Assembly: GCF_004010195.1 (NCBI RefSeq)
Contig: NC_057718.1
Span: 70,229,382 to 70,293,381, forward strand
Direction: 5' to 3'
Source of the DNA: Chiloscyllium plagiosum
Taxonomy: Eukaryota
DNA length: 64,000 nucleotides
The notes under the pieces are model-generated. The model did no database searches, was not told where the DNA came from, and was given only the letters and a program-made list of their open reading frames with translations. Within the stretch, counting starts at the first letter, position 1. Every line of letters starts with the position of its first letter. Positions 14,844 through 37,659 of this stretch are shown here, piece by piece. Position numbers and translations under genes: made by a program.

Positions 14844-16706
14844 AATGCAGAATGTAAATATGCCCAGATAGAGAAAGAAAGCTTAACGGTTACATTTGAA
14901 ATCAGGATGTTCCATCAGTATCTTTCTCGATGAAAATTTGTGACAATCAGTGACCACAAACTCTTTCTTGCTGTGCTTAAACAAGACAAGGCAGTGCCAC
15001 CCATAGCTTTGGGCCACTATCAGCAGTGGGCTGCAATGCTAAGTGCTCATAATTACAAGTTAGAACACCTTAGAAGGCCAAATAGAGAATACAGAAGCAT
15101 TGGGTCACCTTCCATCAGCAGATACACCCCCCGTGGAAGAATCTGTAATGGTATTTAAATTTTCTGGACACACTCGCAGTTACAGCTGACAGTATCAGAC
15201 TTCGGACACAGAAAGATCTAGTGCTTTCAAAACTGAAACAATTAATGGTGATGGGGGAAACCAAAGGGCTGCCACAACTAGAATTGAAACCTTTTCAGTG
15301 CAGGAGAAACCAGCTCAGTAGAAGATGGCGTATTGTTATGGAGAGCAAGAGTGATTGTCCCAAGCAATGGTCGCCATTGAATACTGGCTGAACTCCACCA
15401 GGGCCATCCAGGGATCTCCAAAATGAAAATTTTGGTGGCAAGTTATGTCTGATAGCCAGGCCTGGATACAGACATAGCCACATTGTTGGAGCAGTGCTCA
15501 GAGTACCAACAACGGCAAATATTTCTACCAGCAGCTCCTCCACATCTTTGGGAATAGCCAGGTAAACCTTGGGCTCAGGTGCATTTTAACTATGTAGTCC
15601 TTTGCTGGGTTCAATGTTCTTTGTCATTTAGATGCCTACTCAAAGTGGTTAGGCATGTATGCAGTCCATTTGTCAAACACTGGTATGACAATGGAAAAAT
15701 TATGCACATCCTTTTCAATACACGCAGTCCCAAAAGTGTTGGTCACAGATAATGGGCCATCATTTACCAGCAGGGAATTTGGGTATTTCCTAAAGTCAAA
15801 TGGGATTTGACTCCATACACACCCCACTCATCCAATGGCCTGGCAGAAAGAACATTCCAAACTTTGAAGGCTGACTTGAAGAAACAGCCTACAGCCTCAC
15901 TAGTCACCAAGCTGTCACAGTTCTTATTTGAGTCTTGGACTGTCCCACATGCAACTACAGGGAGAGCACAGGCAGAGTTACTAAAGGGTAGAAAACTCCA
16001 CACTTGGTTGAGTCTGATCTTCTCAGACTGGGAGCATCAGGAATACCAATGCTGGACAAGACTCCACCAAGTCAGAGAGACAATTTGATACAGGGACGAA
16101 GTTTGATGTTAGAATCATGGAAGTGGACCCACATGGGTAACAGGCATTGTCGATGCAAGGTCAGGACCAGTGATGTATTTGGGTAGGTGCAATGGTCCTG
16201 AACAAGAACGTGGACCAAATAAAATCTGCAAATTCACAAATGGTGCAGAAACAAGACATGCCCTGCCCTCAGAACAGTCAAAAAGACTGCCAGAACTCAT
16301 TAGTTTACTTCTCCGCCAAACATTGGTGAGTCCTCTGAATCAGAGATGGACATGATGGATGTAGCCGCTTTGATGCCTTTACCGCTAGAAGAAGAGTAAA
16401 ATTCTAGCAAGGCATGCCTGATGCAGGGATGAGCTTCCATGTAACATCAACCGTATCAGATGCAGTGTCAGAGAACTTGACCTGGTGCTAAAATGCACTT
16501 GGAGACTCTCCACGAAAAAGCTCCAGCCTATGTTCTAGGTCTCAGAGAAGGAGAGATGCAGTGACTGTAATGAGGTTGGCCAGCTGGACTTCATAGGATA
16601 TGAGTTCCCTAATTGGGGCTGTCAAATGGGTCTATTCAGGAAGCTCTGGCTGACAGATAAAAAGGAGAGTGTCCCTTTGAGAGCTGTGACTGAATGGGGC
16701 AGTTCT

Positions 16707-26430: not shown

Positions 26431-26654
26431 TGTAATGATCGGAACGATGTCAACAAGGTGGATCTCTCATAGAATATGAATTCCCTGATTGGACCTCCTA
26501 ACCTGGTCCAATCAGGGAGTTTCAGCTGACAGGTCAAACAGGAACATCAGTGGTTCTGTTCACTCTGGGAGTTGGCTCTGTGCTAGCTGGGTGAATGATG
26601 TTTAAGTAAATGATGACATGGTGACGAGATATTGGCCTTCTTGGAGTTATTTCA
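26431..26654 (+). repeat. 5' LTR of second Gypsy element
   Basis: TG...CA ends; aligns with 30623-30740 plus 37420-37539 and with 16557-17025. Confidence 0.8.
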
Positions 26655-27203
26655 GTGATCATGAGATTAAAAAATCCCATATCAAGAATCCATATCTGGA
26701 ATTTTGACAAAGTTAAGATGACTGGCAGAGGCATTTGATTTTTGATTTAACCCAAAGTGAGATGCAAAGATACTATTTGGTATGTGCGATTAATGATGTG
26801 ACCACTCAAAAGCATTTACTAGCTGAAGCCCAATTGGGCTTCAAACAGACATTACAACTGGCTTTGCCATCAGAAAATGCGGTAAATGGAGCTTATGAAT
26901 TATAGGAGTTGCCAATTAAAGCAGATATCCTTGCCAAGCCTGCAGAGCTTGCATCACTTGAGTGAAGGCAATTGCATAGCCTCACTCAGGACATATCCTC
27001 ATAGAGGGACACTAGGGCAGCCCACTGTAAAACTCCAAATCAAAGCCAAGCCTTGGCCAAATGGTTAAAATTTTCTCAAGGGCTTGGACTGGCAGGCCAT
27101 TGTAGTTGCTGCTAGTACGCGGACTCAAGATAGCAAAAGAGTCCCACTGGTCTTGAATTGAGAAAGAAAACTCAGGCTGATATTGAAGAGAGTGCACACC
27201 CTA

Positions 27204-27424
27204 AAAAGTTAAAAATCGCACAACACCAGGTTATAGTCCAACAGGTTTAATTGGAAGCACACTAGCTTTCAGAGCGCCGTTCCTTCATCAGGTGATAATC
27301 ACCTGGTGAAGGAGCGGCTCTCCGAAAGCTAGTGTGCTTCCAATTAAACCTGTTGGACTATAACCTGGTGTTGTGTGATTTTTAACTTTGTACACCCCAT
27401 TCCAACACCGGCATATCCAAATCA
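27204..27424. mobile_element. Short fold-back Penelope-like insertion (second family)
   Basis: Palindrome ~27204-27389 centred on ggtgataatcacc; TSD cacccta(a/g)aaagtt at 27197-27210 and 27425-27438. Confidence 0.8.
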
Positions 27425-30400
27425 CACCCTAGAAAGTTCACCTACAGTTGGTTTGGAACAGTTAAATTGCTTAGCGACATCCAACAAAGAGCCAATCAAA
27501 ATAAATGACTGGTGAAATGGTTACTCGTTCTAATAGATGTCAATACTGGTGTGGTCATTGCAGAACCAGTCTTTAGCAAAATTTGCTATAGAACCCAATG
27601 CTTAAGTTTGAATAAGTCCTCAGCCAGGCTGAGAACCGAAACCAGGGAACCTTTACAGATTAAAGGTATAATTTCAGTTCCAGTCTCTGATGAGAAGCAG
27701 CTGGTTTAGTTACCACTGATTGTAGTAGAAGACTTAGGCCCAAACTCAATGGGGCAAAATTGTTTCAGAAAGATTCAACTTGACTGGCCCAATATATTTT
27801 GAAAAAGAGTGAAATCCTAATTTCTTTTTTCAGGGAGATCTGGGGACTATCAAATGGGCTAAAGCCACCTTACATGTTGACCAAGAAGTAATTCCATGAT
27901 TCTGCAGGGCCTGCGCAGTGCAATTTCTCTTGCATGCAAAAGTAGAGGCAGAAATGAGGAGGCTGGATTGGGTAGCACCATTTGTATTGATTGTAAAGCC
28001 TTTGTGGGGATTTTAAACAAATGGTGAACCACTTTTTGCAGCTAGATAAATACTCAATTGCTTGCATAGAGGATGGATACACAAAGCGAGCGAGGGGAGG
28101 AGGGCTGTCCTTCGCAAAGCTGGACTTACATTATGCGTACCTGCAAATGCAATTAAATAAGGATTCCCAGAGGTCTCCTACAAATAATACTCATAAGGGG
28201 TTGTACCAACAAATGAGCCTGCCCTTTGGGGTATCATCAGCCTGTGTCATTTTCCAGCAGATGATGGAGAACATTTCACAAGGAATACCCCAAGTTGCCA
28301 TTTATCTGTATGATGTGCCGATAACAGGGAAGACCAATAAAGAGCATTTGAAGAACTTGGTCATGGTGCTTAAACATTTCTCCAAGGTGGGTGGATGCCT
28401 TAGTTGGGAGAAATGTGTGTTCCATGTACCCCAAGTGGCTTATCTGGGCTACAGAGTCAACAAGACCAGGTTACACCCATTGGAAGATAAAGTGAGGGTG
28501 ATTAAAGGAGACCGGCTCCCATGTCTGTACTGGACCTTAGGTCTTTCCTAGAAGTAGTAAATTATCACAGAAAATTCATCTGCAATCTGACCTCCCTCCT
28601 GGCACTCTTACACTTGTTTATCGAAAAAGTTTCAGCCTTGGAAATGGTCTCATAACCAAGATATAGTGTCTAGGGAAGTGAAGAAGCAGCTTCTGTCATC
28701 TAAGGTTTTAGCAGACTATCATTCCTAGCACGATCTGGTGCTGACATGCGATTCTTGCCCGTATGGTATTGGGTTAGTGTTGACTCATTGATGGCCCAAC
28801 AAAGAAGAACGCCCAATCGTGTATGTTTCCCGGATGTTGGCTGATGCTGATTGCAAATGCCCATATAGAGAAGGAAGATTTGGGGCGGTCAGCTTTGGTG
28901 AGAGAAAGTTCCACCAATACCTTTACTGATGTAAATTTATAATAGTAATGGATGACAAACCCCTGCAAGGTCTATTTAAAGAGGACAGGGCTGCGCTGCC
29001 CATAGCTTCAGGTTGAATTCAGGGATGGGCACTTATTGTGAGCGTGTAAAATCACAAATAGGATCCAGCACCACTAATCCAAAATTTGGTTTCCAGCATC
29101 TGCAGTCATTGTTTTTACCATCCAGGAGGTCAAGTAGCAAATGCGGATGTCTTGAGCTGCCACCCACTGGTGGATAAACCACGGGTGGTCCATACACTGG
29201 AAGTTTCCATTCTGGTTTTAAACTTTCTGGATATACTTCTGGTCACCACTGACAATATCAGAATGTGGACACAAACAGATCCAGTCTTGGCAAAACTAAA
29301 ATGAGAGGGGTGACAAAAGGGCCATCATAAACAGAACTGAAACTATTCTGGACCTGGCGAGATTGTAAAGATCAGTATATTATTAGGAGGAGCAAGAGTG
29401 ATTGTCCCGATCAACAGTAGCTGCCAGACACTTGCTGAATTAAACCCGGGTAATCCAGGAGCTTCCAAAATGAAGATGTTGGTGAGAAGTTATGTCAGGT
29501 TTGGATACCGATTTAGTTGTGTAGGTGGGGCAGTGTCCAGAGTGTCAACAAGGACAGAAATTACCGCCAGCAGTTCCCCAACATTTGTGGGAATGGACTT
29601 GGTTACACATTGACTATGCCAGTCCTTTCATGGATTCTATGTTTTTAGTCAAAGTGGGCGCTCCATTCAAAATGGTTGGATGCACATAAAGTTAATTTGT
29701 CAAATACAGGAATGACAACTGAAAAGTTTCAAGCATCTTTTGCTATACAAAAATTCCCAGGGGTGTTGGTCACAGACAACGGGTCATTATCTACCAGCAG
29801 GGAATCTGAGTATTTCCGAAAGTCGAATAGCATTCAGCATGTACGGACAACTCCATACCATCTATCATTCAATGGTCTGGTAGAAACAGCAGTCCAAACT
29901 TTGAAGGCGGGTTTAAAAAAAAGCCTGAAGCTTCACTCAACACCAAACTGCCCCAGTTCCCATTTGATTATAGAACCACCCCTCATGCAACTACAGGGTT
30001 AGCTCCAGCAAAGTTGCTAATGGGGAGAAGACTCCACACCAGGTTAATTCTGATTTTCCCGCTCCTGGGGAGGGGGGATTGGAGAAATGGCATCAGGCAA
30101 GCTAATGCCGATCACGACTCTTCGAACAGAGAGAGAAAGTTTACTTCAGGGAACTAGGTTTGGTGACAAAACCTTAGGAATGGCCCTTCATGGTAAGAGT
30201 CATGATTGACGCAAGGTCAGGTCCCATGACGTACAAAGTTTGAGTTGGGGAAGTGGTCCAGAACAAGCACGTAGACCACATGAAAGCTGCAACTTCACAA
30301 ACAGTGCAGGTGCAAAACATACCTAGACCCACAGAACATCCAACAAGACTGTCAGAACCCCTGGGTTCTGCCTCTCTATCTTGTGCCAAAGAAACTTGTG

Positions 30401-33015
30401 AGGATAAGATGGACATGGCAGATATCGTAGCCTCAATGGCATTACTGCCTGAAGATAAGTTGCATCCAAGAGGCGGGCAATGTCTGGTACACATTGCCAT
30501 ATCCAAGGCAGAATCCAAGGAACAAACCGAGTGTGAAAACACACCAGGAGGAGCTACAGGAGAAAAGAATGGGCCTATGTCCCAGGACTTAGAGGGAGAA
30601 GGATGTAGTAGAGAGAGAAGTATATAGTGATCGGACCAATGTCAGCCAGGTGAGTTGATTTAGAATATAAATTCTCTGAGTGGGGCTGTTAACCATGTCC
30701 AATCAGGGAGTCCTGGCTGATAGATATAAACAGGAGTGTTAGAAGCCATTATTAAGAAAGTTATAGCAGGACAGCTGAAGAGTCAACACTCAGGGTCTGC
30801 ATAGTTTTGTGAAGGTATATCATATTTGACTAATTTGCTGGAGTTCTTCGAAGCAACAAGTGGATAATGGAGATCTGGTAGATGTAGTATAGAAGGCATT
30901 TGATAAGGAGCTGCACAAAATTTACAAGGTAAGAGTAAATCAGTTTAGTGCTAATTTATTAGCTTGGATAAAGGATTAACTGACTAACAGAAAGCAGAGA
31001 GAGTCTTTGGGCACCCGGTACGGAGGAGGGAGGGCAGGTCTGCTCCTGGGCCTGACCAAACTGCCCATCAACAGGTCAAGGCAGCGGGCCGTGGAGGGGG
31101 TCGTTATGACCAACTGCCTGCCTCTCTTCCGCGGTTACGTTAGAGCCCGGGTGTCCTTTGGAGAAGGAGCACGCGGTATCCACCAACACCCTGGAGTTGT
31201 TCAGGGAGAGGTGGGCGCCACAGGGAGTGGGGTGCATCATTTCTCCCTCCAACTCTATTTTGATTTAGTCCCTACCCTCCCCTTCACTGTTTTGATCACA
31301 CCGCACTGCCCTTTGATGTGAAGGGCAGTGCTTGTCACTGGCCACCCGGGTGTTTTCCTATCTTCCTGGTGGTGGAAATTGAATAAAGATTGGTGCACTT
31401 TGTGTCTTTCACTGTGTCTCACACCTGCACAAAAAAATAAATAAATAAATAAATACATAAACAGGAGATTTCCGCGGTTAAAAAAAAAATAAATAAACAG
31501 GAGATTTTTGATCACACAGCACATCCCTCTGATGTGAAGGGCAGTGTTTGTCACTGGCCACCCGGGTGTTTGCCTAATAAAAGAAAAGAACAGGAGATTT
31601 TCCTTTGATGTGAAGGGCAGTGTTTGTCACTGGCCACCCGGGTGTTTTCCTGTCTTCCTGGTGGTGGAAATTGAATAAAGATTCGTGCACTTTGTGTCTT
31701 TCACTGTGTCTCACACCTGCACACACTGACCATGGGTGCTGGGGATAAAATAAGCACTACCGCACTTAGGTGGTAGTGTGGGGGTTAAAGAAAAAAAGAA
31801 AGAAGAAAAAAAAAGAAACAATGCACCCACCCTCCCCTTCACTGTTTTAATCACACAGCACTGCCCTTTGATGTGAAGGGCAGTGTTTGTCACTGGCCAC
31901 CCGGGTGTTTGCCTATCTAAAAAAAAAATAAACAGGAGTGTTAGAAACCATTATTAAGAAAGTTATAGCAGGACAGCTGAAGAGTCAACACTCAGGGTCT
32001 GCATGGTTTTGTGAAGGTATATCATGTTTGACTAATTTGCTGGAGTTCTTCGAAGCAACAAGTGGATAATGGAGATCTGGTAGATGTAGTATAGAAGGCA
32101 TTTGATAAGGAGCTGCACAAAATTTACAAGGTAAGAGTAAATCAGTTTAGTGCTAATTTATTAGCTTGGATAAAGGATTAACTGACTAACAGAAAGCAGA
32201 GAGAGTCTTTGGGCACCCGGTACGGAGGAGGGAGGGCAGGTCTGAAGACCTCCTCGTGGGTCTGCTCCTGGGCCTGGCCAAACTGCCAATTAACAGGTCC
32301 AGGCAGCGGGCCATGGAGGGGGTCGTTATGGCTAACTGCCTGCCTCTTTTCCGCGGTTACGTTAGAGCCCGGGTGTCCTTTGGAGAAGGAGCACGCGGTA
32401 TCCACCAACACCCTGGAGTTGTTCAGGGAGAGGTGGGCGCCACAGGGAGTGGGGTGCATCATTTCTCCCTCCAACTCTATTTTGATTTAGTCCCTACCCT
32501 CCCCTTCACTGTTTTTGATCACACAGCCCTGCCCTATGATGTGAAGGGCAGTGTTTGTCACTGGCCACCCGGGTGTTTTCCTATCTTCCTGGTGGTGGCA
32601 TTTGAATAAAGATTGGTGCACTTTGTGTCTTTCACTGTGTCTCACACCTGCACACACACACACACCATGTGTGCTGGGGATAAAATAAGCACCACCGCAC
32701 TTAGGTGGTAGTGTGGGGGTTAAAAAAAAAGAAAAGAAAGAAAAAAAAACAACAAAAAAATTAAACAGGAGTGTCCTCCTCTGCTTTTGGTTGCACTTCA
32801 GTCCCACGCTCCTGATCTTTGGGCACCCGGTACGGAGGAGGGAGAGCAGGTCTGAAGACCTCCTCGTGAGTCTGCTCCCGGGCCTGGCCATACTGGCCAT
32901 TAACAAGTCCAGGCAGCGGGCCATGGAGGGGGTCATTAGGGCCAACTGCCTGCCTCTCTTCCGCGGTAACGTTAGAGCCCGGGTGTCCTTGGAGAAGGAG
33001 CACGCGGTGTTGACC

Positions 33016-33067
33016 NNNNNNNNNNNNNNNNNNNNNNNNNNNNNNNNNNNNNNNNNNNNNNNNNNNN
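33016..33067. other. Assembly gap
   Basis: Run of N. Confidence 1.
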
Positions 33068-33773
33068 GGCCACCCGGGTGTTTTCCTATCTTCCTGGTGG
33101 TGGAAATTGAAAAAAGATTCGTGCACTTTGTGTCTTTCACTGTGTCTCACACCTGAGCACACACACACCATGGGTGCTGGGAAAAAATATATATATAATA
33201 AGCACTACCGCACTTAGGTGGTAGTGTGGGGGTTAAAATAAAAAAATATATAAAAATAAAAAAGAACAGAAAAAGAAATAATCAAGAAATTCGCGGTGTC
33301 CACCAACACCCTGGAGTTGTTCAGGGAGAGGTGGGCGCCACAGGGAGTGGGGTGCATCATTTCTCCCTCCAACTCTATTTTGATTTAGTCCCTACCCTCC
33401 CCTTCACTGTTTTTGATCACACAGCATTGCCATTTGATGTGAAGGGCAGTGTTTGTCACTGGCCACCCTGGTGTTTTCCTGTCTTCCTGGTGGTGGAAAA
33501 AAATAAATAAATAAATAAATAAATAAACAGGAGTGTCCTTCTCTGCTTTTGGTTGCACTTCAGTCCCACGCTCCTGATCTTTGTGCACCCGGTACGGAGG
33601 AGGGAGGGCAGGTCTGAAGACCTCCTCGTGGGTCTGCTCCTGGGCCTGGCCAAACTGCCCATTAACAGGTCCAGGCAGCGGGCCATGGATGGGGTCGTTA
33701 GGGCCAACTGCCTGTCCCTCTTCCGCGGTTACGTTAGAGCCCGGGTGTCCTTGGAGAAGGAGCACGCGGTGTC

Positions 33774-34039
33774 NNNNNNNNNNNNNNNNNNNNNNNNNNN
33801 NNNNNNNNNNNNNNNNNNNNNNNNNNNNNNNNNNNNNNNNNNNNNNNNNNNNNNNNNNNNNNNNNNNNNNNNNNNNNNNNNNNNNNNNNNNNNNNNNNNN
33901 NNNNNNNNNNNNNNNNNNNNNNNNNNNNNNNNNNNNNNNNNNNNNNNNNNNNNNNNNNNNNNNNNNNNNNNNNNNNNNNNNNNNNNNNNNNNNNNNNNNN
34001 NNNNNNNNNNNNNNNNNNNNNNNNNNNNNNNNNNNNNNN
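33774..34039. other. Assembly gap
   Basis: Run of N. Confidence 1.
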
Positions 34040-36822
34040 CCTCCAACTCTATTTTGATTTAATCCCTGCCCTCCCCTTCACTGTTTAATCACACAGCATT
34101 GCCCTTTGATGTGAAGGGCAGTGTTTGTCACTGGCCACCCGGGTGTTTTCCTATTTTCTTGGTGGTGGAAATTGAATAAAGATTTGTGCACTTTGTGTCT
34201 CACACGTATACACACACACCATGGGTGCTGGGGAAACAAATAAGCACTACCGCACTTAGGTGGTAGTGTGGGGGTTAAAGGGGGGAAAAAAAAAGAAAAA
34301 GAAAAAAAAATTAAAAAAAGAAAAAAAAATATAAACAGGAGTGTGGGCGCCGCAGGGAGTGGAGTGCATCATTTCTCCCTCCAATAAAAAAGAGAAAAAA
34401 AAAATAAACAGGAGATTCACATATACACCATGGGTGCTGGGGATAAAATAAGCACTACCGCACTTAGGTGGTAGTGTGGGGGTTAAAAGAACAAAAAGAA
34501 AAAAGAAAAAAAAAGAAAAAAAACAGGTGTGCTTGCCCTTTGATGTGAAGGGCAGTGTTTGTCACTGACCACTCGGGTGTTTTCCTATCTTCCTGGTGGT
34601 GGAATTTGAATAAAAATTTGTGCACTTTGTGTCTTTCACTGTGTCTCACACGTATACACACACACCATGGGTGCTGGGGAAAAAATAAACACTACCGCAC
34701 TTAGGTGGTAGTGTGGGGGTTATTAAGAAAAAAATAAAGAAATAAAAAAATAAATAAATAAACAGGAGTGTCTTCCTCTGCTTTTGGTTGCACTTCAGTC
34801 CCACGCTCCTGATCTTTGTGCACCCGGTACGGAGGAGGGAGGGCAGATCTGAAGACCTCCTCGTGGGTCTGCTCCTGGGCCTGGCTAAACTGGCCATCAA
34901 CAGCTCCAGGCAGCGGGCCGTGGATGGGGTCGTTAGGGCCGACTGCCTGCCCCTCTTCCGGGGTTACGTTAGGGCCCGGGTGTCCTTGGAGAAGGAGCAC
35001 GCGGTGTCCACCACACCCTGGAGTTGTTCAGGGAGAGGTGGGCGCCGCAGGGAGTGGAGTGCATTATTTCTCCCTCCAACTCTATTTTGATTTAGTCCCT
35101 ACCCTCCCCTTCACTGTTTTTGATCACACAGCACTGCCCTTTGATGTGAAGGGCAGTGTTTGTCACTGGCCACTCGGGTGTTTTCCTATCTTCCTGGTGG
35201 TGGAATTTGAATAAAGATTCGTGCACTTTGTGTCTTTCACTGTGTCTCACTCTGCAAAAAGAATAAATAAAAATAAACAGGAGATTACCCTGGAGCTGTT
35301 CAGGGAGAGGTAGGCGCCGCAGGGAGTGGAGTGCATCATTTCTCCCTCCAACTGTATTTTGATTTAGTCCCTACCCTCCCCTTCACTGTTTTGATCACAC
35401 AGCACTGCCCTTTGATGTGAAGGGCAGTGTTTGTCACTGGCCACCTGGGTGTTTTCCTATCTTCCCCTGGTGGTGGAAATTGAGTAAAGATTTGTACACC
35501 TTGTGTCTCTCACTGTGTCTCACAACTGCACACACACACCATGGTGCTGGGGATAAAATAAGCACTACCGCACTTAGGCGGTAGTGTGGAGAAAAAATAA
35601 ATAAATAAACAGGGGATTCACTTAGGTGGTAGTGTGGGGGTTTAAAAAAAAACAGGAGTTAATCCGCACCTCCGTACTAAAAAAAAATAAACAGGAAGCA
35701 CAGCCCGGGCGTCCTTGGAAAAAAAAATAAACAGGAGTGTCCTCCTCTGCTTTTGGTTGCACTTCAGTCCCACGCTCCTGATCTTTGGGCACCCGATATG
35801 GAGAAGGGAGGGCAAGTCTGAAGACCTCCTCGTGGTTCTGCTCCTGGGCCTGGCCAAACTGGCCATCAATAGGTCGAGGCAGCGGGCCGTGGAGGGGGTC
35901 GTTAGGGCCGACTGCCTGCCCCTCTTCCGCGGTTACGTTAGAGCCCAGGTGTCCTTGGAGAAGGAGCACGCGGTGTCCACCAACACCCTGGAGTTGTTCA
36001 GGGAGAGATGGGCGCCGCAGGGAGCGGAGTGCATCATTTCTCCCTCCAACTCTATTTTGATTTAGTCCCTACCCTCCCCTTCACTGTTTTGATCACACAG
36101 CACTGCCCTTTGATGTGAAGGGCAGTGTTTGTCACTGGCCACCTGGGTATTTTCCTATCTTCCTGGTGGTGGAAACTGAATAAAGATTCGTGCGCTTTGT
36201 GCCTTTCACTGTGTCTCACACCTGCACACACACACCATGGGTGCTGGGAAAAAAATAAGCACTACCGCACTTAGGTGGTAGTGTGGGGGTTTAAAGAAAT
36301 AAAAAAAATAATAAATAAATAAATAAATAAATAAACAGGAGTGTCATCCTCTGCTTTTGGTTGCACTTCAGTCCCACGCTACTGATCTTTGGGCACCCGG
36401 TACGGAGGAGGGAGGGCAGGTCTGAAGACCTCCTTGTGGGTCTGCTCCTGGGCCTGGCCAAACTAGCCATTAACAGGCCCAGGCAGCGGGCCGTGGAGTG
36501 GGTCGTTAGGGCCGACTGCCTGCCCCTCTTCCGCGGTTACGTTAAGAGCCCGGGTGTCCTTGGAGAAGGAGCACACGGTGTCCACCAACACCCTGCAGTT
36601 GTTCAGGGAGAGGTGGGCGCCACAGAGAGTGGAGTGCATCATTCCTCCCTCCAACTCTATTTTGATTTAGTCCCTACACTCCCCTTCACTGTTTTGATCA
36701 CTCAGCACTGCCCTTTGATGTGAAGGGCAGTGCTTGTCACTGGCCACCCGGGTGTTTTCCTATCTTCCTGGTGGTGGGAATTGAATAAAGATTCAAAAAA
36801 ATAAATAAAAAATAACCAGGAG

Positions 36823-37420
36823 TGAGTACGGAGGGTACTGAAGAAGGGCTTATGCCCGAAACGTCGATTCTCCTGTTCCCTGGATGCTGCCTGACCTGCT
36901 GCGCTTTTCCAGCAACACATTTCCAGCTGAGTACGGAGGGTGGCTGGAGACTGGAAGGCCGACAACCAGCTCATAGAAAGGTGGCCTGGGGTAGTCTGGT
37001 TAGTATGTGGGGCAACTGGAGTTGGGTGGTCGATAACCAGCCTGGAGGAAAGTGGGCCTGGGGAAAGTCGGTTAGTACACAGGGAAGCTGGAGACCAGAA
37101 GCAGTTGACTGTTCTGAAGGAAGACTAGCCAAGGACGATCCGAATAGTATGCAGCATGAACTGGTGTTAGTGTCTTTTCCCAGCTATATTGGGTCTGTGT
37201 TCTATGCACTGTTTCTCATTTGGTTGCAGTGTCTTGTCTGTGTTTGTTACTATTACCTTTGACTGAAAGTGGGATTTGAGGTTTGTCCTCATCTCTCTGA
37301 AAACTGGATGTACAGTGAGGTTTGGCTTTGTGGCCCTTTCTCTTGTATAATGCTTTTTCTTTGTGAACTGCTGCTTTCTGTTCATTAACTGTATTTTGTA
37401 CTGTTTAATAAAATAAAAAA
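36823..37420 (+). mobile_element. Unidentified retroposed 3' end with AATAAA and A-tail
   Basis: Follows an ATAACCAGGAG target copy; T-rich 3' UTR-like end, then aataaaataaaaaaa, then the LTR resumes. Confidence 0.5.
36837..36927 (+). mobile_element. Minimal Penelope-like insertion with hammerhead-like core
   Basis: Perfect 14-bp TSD tgagtacggagggt at 36823-36836 and 36928-36941. Confidence 0.8.
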
Positions 37421-37659
37421 AGGTGCGTCAGGGGTTCTGTGTACTGTAGGAGCTAGCTGTGTCAGTGTCTTCTGCTATGCCTAAATAAATAATGGGTGGC
37501 GGGGGGAGATAAAATGTTGGCCTTTGTAGAGTTATTTCATTTTGTAACAAAATTCATACACTCACGATGGACCGAATGGCTGCCTTCTGCGCCCGAGCAA
37601 CTCTATGATCCTCTAAAACAGTGGACTTTAGCTTCTCAATGATAGGGACCGGAGATGGG

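Follow-up and report, generated by a model that had tools for sequence, protein, structure and literature searches.

The question raised by this locus is how the 3' LTR of a retrotransposon came to hold, within its TATA box, a long series of A-tailed units of one orientation, and what these units are. The window (the whole stretch of DNA that was analysed, 64,000 nucleotides) contains the host LTR retrotransposon at 26431-37539, and its 3' LTR is interrupted at the TATA box (Table 1). A reading made from the letters alone (the sequence-only reading) had the LTR break off and resume beyond the array, and both halves bear this out: the left part agrees with the 5' LTR (26431-26654) at 84 of 115 aligned bases, the aligned segment including the PPT, and the right part at 77 of 104, with a score of 95.5 against a shuffle maximum of 56. 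We take the host to be a Gypsy element, RVT_1 being the only domain tested. A further LTR left half, with the variant target ATAAAAAGGAG at 16657, lies at about 16600-16700 of the window; a standard R half was not detected there.

We believe, with a probability of roughly 0.75, that the units stem from a LINE of the Tx1L lineage with a relaxed preference for the LTR TATA box, that its arrays grow on the TATA side with copying of the neighbouring unit, that its RNAs read through into adjacent sequence, and that its master copies are transcribed from the LTR promoter.

The presence of about 20 A-tailed same-strand units within the TATA box was claimed earlier and is confirmed. Placed by eye, 21 spacer positions give 20 units of a single orientation; since two N gaps (33016-33067 and 33774-34039) fall inside units, the count is approximate. 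Sixteen of the window's 20 matches to ATAAACAGGAG (at most one mismatch) fall in 30726-36822, all on the plus strand, with 1.75 matches expected window-wide. The assignment of the units to a Tx1 element holds for most of them; two start with a captured CR1-like piece of 264 bp, and the last is a member of another, older family. Truncation affects the 3' end of many units in addition to the 5' end. The five units with a shared 5' junction (at 32772, 33534, 34769, 35738 and 36342) belong to the main array, whose units each carry sequence from the 3' UTR of a longer element, from the end of its ORF2, or from both.

Table 1. Features of the interrupted LTR retrotransposon and of the array in its 3' LTR (positions in the window)
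Feature	Positions	Strand	Basis or source
5' LTR of the host element, TATA site unoccupied	26431-26654	+	LTR comparison
Decayed internal region of the host element; RT remnant 27997-28551; purine tract precedes the 3' LTR	26655-30603	+	
Left (U3) part of the 3' LTR; CCAAT box 30699-30703, cut 27 nt later	30604-30725	+	
Target / left target-site duplication ATAAACAGGAGTGT, overlaps TATAAA at 30725-30730	30726-30739	+	
Captured CR1-like piece, 264 bp, copy 1	30740-31003	+	Single source ~440 kb off, same contig
Tx1 piece with a 22-bp deletion, then four short A-tailed pieces behind non-local spacers	31004-31927	+	
Captured CR1-like piece, copy 2; 3 differences from copy 1	31942-32205	+	
Tx1 3' piece, 3' end complete, A tail	32206-32760	+	
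Main array: five units of one locus-specific 5' junction and interleaved shorter pieces; two N gaps	32761-36811	+	
Two ~20-nt internal Tx1 fragments, each A-tailed, behind a variant spacer	35648-35726	+	
Older A-tailed retroposon of another family, SINE-interrupted	36823-37418	+	
Degenerate right duplication and R-U5 part of the 3' LTR	37419-37539	+	Alignment to 5' LTR

The source of the captured piece is L190 (G000:C9:70701514-70701777, minus strand), from which the two copies differ at 2 and 4 positions. The LINE acquired this unique sequence in cis at its 5' end, where three bases match at the left join. Organism B also has a relative of the source. The 22-bp deletion in the first window unit lies between short direct repeats.

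The proposed affiliation with the Tx1 clade is upheld. The RT of the copy at L091 is 61% identical to Xenopus Tx1L (YTX2_XENLA) over 292 aa (E 1.4e-107), compared with E 1.7e-30 for human L1. In an RT tree of 21 proteins, hand-picked from the search matches without an L1 outgroup and without named Keno or Tx1-Mar, the LINE falls into a 100/100 group with Tx1L, turtle, sturgeon and stingray proteins and two unnamed proteins; the sole alligator protein is placed in the other half of the tree. An APE domain lies N-terminal to the RT in ORF2 (PF03372 match in L094), and the Tx1L endonuclease matches seven of the nine long copies examined. Several of these nine are about 7 kb long, and the reading frames are broken in all. 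Frames in the ORF1 position occur in several copies, with no Pfam match for ORF1. Insertions have an A-rich tail and a target-site duplication. Judged by these features, the LINE would be a non-LTR retrotransposon of the Tx1L lineage of about 7 kb, with a putative ORF1 and an ORF2 predicted to encode APE, RT and a zinc knuckle. A non-autonomous element of fixed length was ruled out, since the genome copies reach further 5' and their truncations are scattered. The 5' UTR (L091:2158-2690) consists of a GA-rich tract followed by GC-rich internal repeats, which vary in number among copies.

How general is the association with the LTR? The genome searched comprises 3.56 Gb, and the counts come from pattern searches and sampled loci. 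Its SINEs and a close stingray protein suggest that it is probably that of a cartilaginous fish. There are 2693 exact matches to the LINE 3' end and 1552 uninterrupted LTR target sites; the target motif is therefore native LTR sequence. The first 100 3'-end matches listed, all on contig C1, were grouped into 68 consecutive loci. An LTR half adjoins the array in sense at 37 of these (both halves at 20) and in reverse at one, against a background of 58 in 5288 (1.1%); the figure of 37 is a lower bound, because diverged LTRs and arrays longer than the sampled stretch are missed. Fragments within a locus share their orientation in 271 cases and oppose it in 3, and number 3.8 per LTR locus versus 1.7 per non-LTR locus. 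In contigs from public runs of two organisms, the LTR left half is joined to about ten different truncation points. A bias towards the TATA site of these LTRs is thus borne out. Strict sequence specificity, which had also been suggested, is not: 31 of the 68 loci are ordinary insertions with short target duplications and no detectable LTR flank, and the exact 11-mer is found at the cut in 7 of 62 LTR left halves without a following R half. Duplications at non-LTR sites are mostly 13-17 bp and start at T/AA. By the rule of Kojima (2015), under which over 20% of flanks must be of a single sequence type, 37 of 68 makes the LINE target-specific; it differs from Keno and R1, which have nearly all copies at one conserved sequence, in its 31 loci off the LTR and its variable site sequence. 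Although relaxed, the preference for the LTR TATA position is strong; insertions there lie in sense and have duplications of about 13-17 bp.

Two of the 68 loci (L106:3500-4200 and L153:3500-4100) are insertions into a single other repeat, within a few bases of each other. Judged by eye, this repeat matches the reversed sequence that follows the R-like segments in L209 and L210, and is possibly a second preferred site. At L116:3870-4950 the LTR R-U5 half in its entirety, plus some flank, is duplicated on both sides of the array.

The position of the cut, about 27 nt past the CCAAT box, is better conserved than the sequence ATAAACAGGAG. Of 26 LTR sites, 13 are cut exactly 27 nt past CCAAT and 18 at a distance of 26-28 nt; the duplicated bases vary widely between LTR copies, and the cut position is fixed. 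Targeting could therefore be guided by placement relative to the CCAAT-TATA promoter, through contacts with upstream DNA or a host factor, the cut bases being minor beyond T/AA. Such guidance, which we consider possible but doubtful and treat as a lead rather than a result, would account for a constant position on variable sequence as well as for growth on the TATA side. Among non-family sites, CCAAT stands at -25 to -28 in 6 of 26 versus 273 of 16629 A-rich control sites (1.6%); however, 5 of the 26 sites, 3 positives among them, were placed by hand once the pattern had been noticed (with the 21 sites placed by script, the count is 3), three positives seem to come from a single other repeat family, and the box is absent from 20. 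Exact CCAAT occurs in 3 of 8 empty LTR halves versus 48 of 62 others, a comparison with a tiny empty sample and biased queries. A degenerate endonuclease motif could yield an identical fixed position. Local duplications are also repeated at the non-LTR sites L108, L114, L119, L140 and L155, mostly without CCAAT, so that upstream recognition alone is insufficient; this observation also counts against our main account. The insertions at L108, L132 and L159 lie at a TATA-like site of a different repeat family, at equal CCAAT spacing.

Concerning the growth of the arrays, we presume that the LINE would insert at the LTR TATA box by target-primed reverse transcription, and that the left duplication, which retains the upstream LTR sequence, would be cut again, the array thus extending mainly on the TATA side. 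To finish, the new cDNA would often anneal to the resident copy immediately downstream and take the first 40-80 bases of that copy as its template, back through the duplication, a process resembled by the cDNA-resident chimeras of L1; as a consequence, one 5' junction would be repeated on bodies from different templates.

The units of the window are 91-97% alike and no nearer to each other than to distant or unlinked copies. Of 59 loci with several units, 44 have the greater divergence in the downstream half and 14 the smaller; this agrees with entry on the TATA side, which has been described for R1. Among the window's 14 young fragments no age gradient was found (0.020 vs 0.018). The shared 5' junction occurs five times in the array and once elsewhere in the genome, and 3 of 19 window junctions have a match at other sampled loci. 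In 26 loci there are 104 junction-sharing pairs, not independent of each other, that differ at 3.1% of their first 40 nt versus 7.9% in the control and reach the control level beyond 80 nt; by locus, the proximal similarity is seen in 18 and contradicted in 5 of 24 (two were dropped as short). In L135 and L120 one private 5' part is joined to 3' ends of different subfamilies, and the first window unit, with its repeated 264-bp piece and subsequent 22-bp deletion, fits the copying of a neighbour. The proposal of growth by repeated insertion is supported by the divergence of the units, by the gradient and by the restriction of similarity to the 5' end. As a rule, a new copy goes in on the TATA side; in many cases it bears the 5' junction of the neighbour, presumably by copying it. 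Several points count against our account: the 31 loci without an LTR flank, the flat age profile of the window's young fragments and the five loci that contradict the proximal similarity. In addition, the gradient could also stem from young elements carrying older 3' flanks, and the units of L157 share many rare variants along their whole length, as plain duplication would give.

Could several templates have been inserted in succession at one unresolved site, in a single burst? The equal ages within the window and the duplications repeated at arbitrary non-LTR sites would agree with this, and such a process may supplement serial insertion instead of replacing it. As the main source of arrays we find it unlikely, in view of the age gradients in most loci and of the older family, of about 79% identity, at the far end of arrays. 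Tandem duplication or unequal exchange at the DNA level after one or two insertions would explain a junction nearly confined to the window, the twofold captured piece and L157; yet the units that share a junction are unlike each other at common subfamily positions, in tails and in 3' ends, they are as distant as unlinked copies, and their similarity ends after 40-80 nt, so that this origin is already largely disfavoured and, in our opinion, very unlikely. An assembly artefact, to which the two N gaps and the want of a contig or long read across the array might point, is hardly credible given that the units differ by 3-9%, that many loci have an equal architecture, and that a contig from an independent sample crosses the first junction, though with just 25 letters on the left.

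Serial insertion leaves the origin of the spacers to be considered. The sequence-only reading had every spacer regenerated as a local duplication, and this proved too simple. Of 21 non-LTR insertions, 8 have short pieces and spacers of LTR type between the tail and the local duplication, and 13 have none; some spacers must therefore have been carried in on RNA. These foreign spacers show that many spacers are target sites of the donor imported by 3' read-through. Transcripts continue past the A tail into the donor target and the next units, and the RNA thereby carries copies of the target along with short fragments. The possibility that the motif belongs to the 3' end of the element itself is correct insofar as the motif is often on the RNA, but it is not a fixed part, as the 13 insertions demonstrate. 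Region 31004-31927 is probably one insertion with a transduced 3' part, and the two short fragments at 35648-35726 are likely to represent donor-unit starts moved by transduction. In several spacers of the window the ending is ATT, whereas the local duplication has TGT; these are the two commonest endings overall (20 and 45, respectively), and ATT follows the motif in a second LTR type. The tail together with the target creates AATAAA, which could serve as an end signal for read-through transcripts; the lengths of the pieces after spacers have no sharp peak at a poly(A) distance. The order of the terminal variants was 10 versus 1 of 12 loci, and a divergence test did not rank the ages of the variants.

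The 5' ends of the long elements bear on their transcription. Among 20 of 59 head matches examined, eight start with LTR R, ten with a piece of the LINE's own 3' UTR followed by a shorter R, and two are truncated. Three heads tested align to LTR R with scores of 65-104 against a shuffle maximum of 42; for a distal head from the second LTR subtype, the alignment was not above shuffles. In L178 and L095 no LTR left half was seen upstream, and the head begins about 30 nt past the would-be TATA, near an initiator-like motif; about 30 nt is the distance from TATA to the start of transcription. Full-length elements that begin with LTR R suggest transcription from the LTR promoter, and such transcription is probable as far as sequence can tell. 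The masters would be transcribed from the LTR promoter that houses them, in some cases through upstream units of the array. The earlier idea of a parasitised promoter thus receives indirect support from the R-derived heads and the start geometry. The head as a second insertion site within the LTR is disfavoured: the array of L096 still ends in a complete R half, and some heads have no LTR left half seen upstream.

To what extent is this new? Tx1L of Xenopus laevis, the closest named protein, targets another transposon, Tx1D (PMC4494074, in the passages available); that target is a piggyBac-type DNA transposon, whereas the present LINE favours an LTR TATA box, and does so in a relaxed manner. 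The sequence-only reading knew of no Tx1 family that targets LTRs, and this novelty has to be given up: Kojima (2015, PMC4494074) reports, in the main-text passages, that two crocodilian families, Tx1-8_Crp and Tx1-4_AMi, prefer LTR retrotransposons. The same passages describe tandem SINEU-3 copies that sandwich the target duplication (in the study of crocodilian Tx1-Mar/SINEU-3) and heads captured from other transcripts, with transcription from the host transposon suggested. In LTR preference, tandem copies around a duplication and captured heads, these families are like the present LINE; they group with Keno and carry snRNA heads, whereas the heads here are LTR-derived, and those passages state no position within the LTR. 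Arrays of Drosophila R1 grow by insertion into the duplication at the resident 5' end (Stage and Eickbush 2009, PMC2718515, in part), as the present array does; R1 belongs to the R1 clade, has a strict 28S rDNA target and averages two to three copies, and the sections concerned describe no copying of a neighbour's junction. McGurk and Barbash (bioRxiv 10.1101/158386, in the portions at hand) note that an insertion preserves its target and creates a new one, giving tandem dimers; their arrays are mostly dimers with later unequal exchange, and here there are up to ~20 heterogeneous units. With LTR-preferring Tx1 families and R1 arrays at 5' duplications published, the basic habit is already known, and several details of this array look undescribed. 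The literature searched (including the parts available of PMC3747384 and PMC4640811, with subscription journals and Repbase outside its scope) contains no description of this family or of targeting of a TATA position.

How a LINE joins its 5' end is still a poorly understood step, and thousands of natural insertions (the exact 3' ends counted above) offer material on it and on site choice by APE-type LINEs. If the CCAAT-TATA geometry guides placement, this would be a mode of LINE targeting not found in the literature searched. A LINE sited by promoter geometry at a fixed CCAAT distance, with its own promoter replaced by a captured LTR R head and its 5' end copied from a neighbour, is a combination that we regard as rather unlikely; if true, the R head would rebuild a TATA-initiator unit on insertion, and the target would supply promoter, polyadenylation signal and primer homology, that is, a closed loop.

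The last unit of the array extends the relation back in time. Copies of the older retroposon family are about 79% alike, and LTR R-like sequence follows 19 of the 20 best-scoring copies examined by a loose criterion, which 15% of control windows also satisfy; by a strict one, the number is 8 of the 20. The older family uses the identical LTR site. One transposon thus disrupts, and probably uses, the promoters of another over at least two family generations. In L196, L199, L202 and L210, R-like segments are followed by sequence resembling the head of the young family, and by this resemblance the older family may also have an LTR-derived head. The old unit has taken up a SINE (about 36838-36928) close to its 5' end, an insertion accompanied by a duplication; the SINE has at least 10 further matches in the window.
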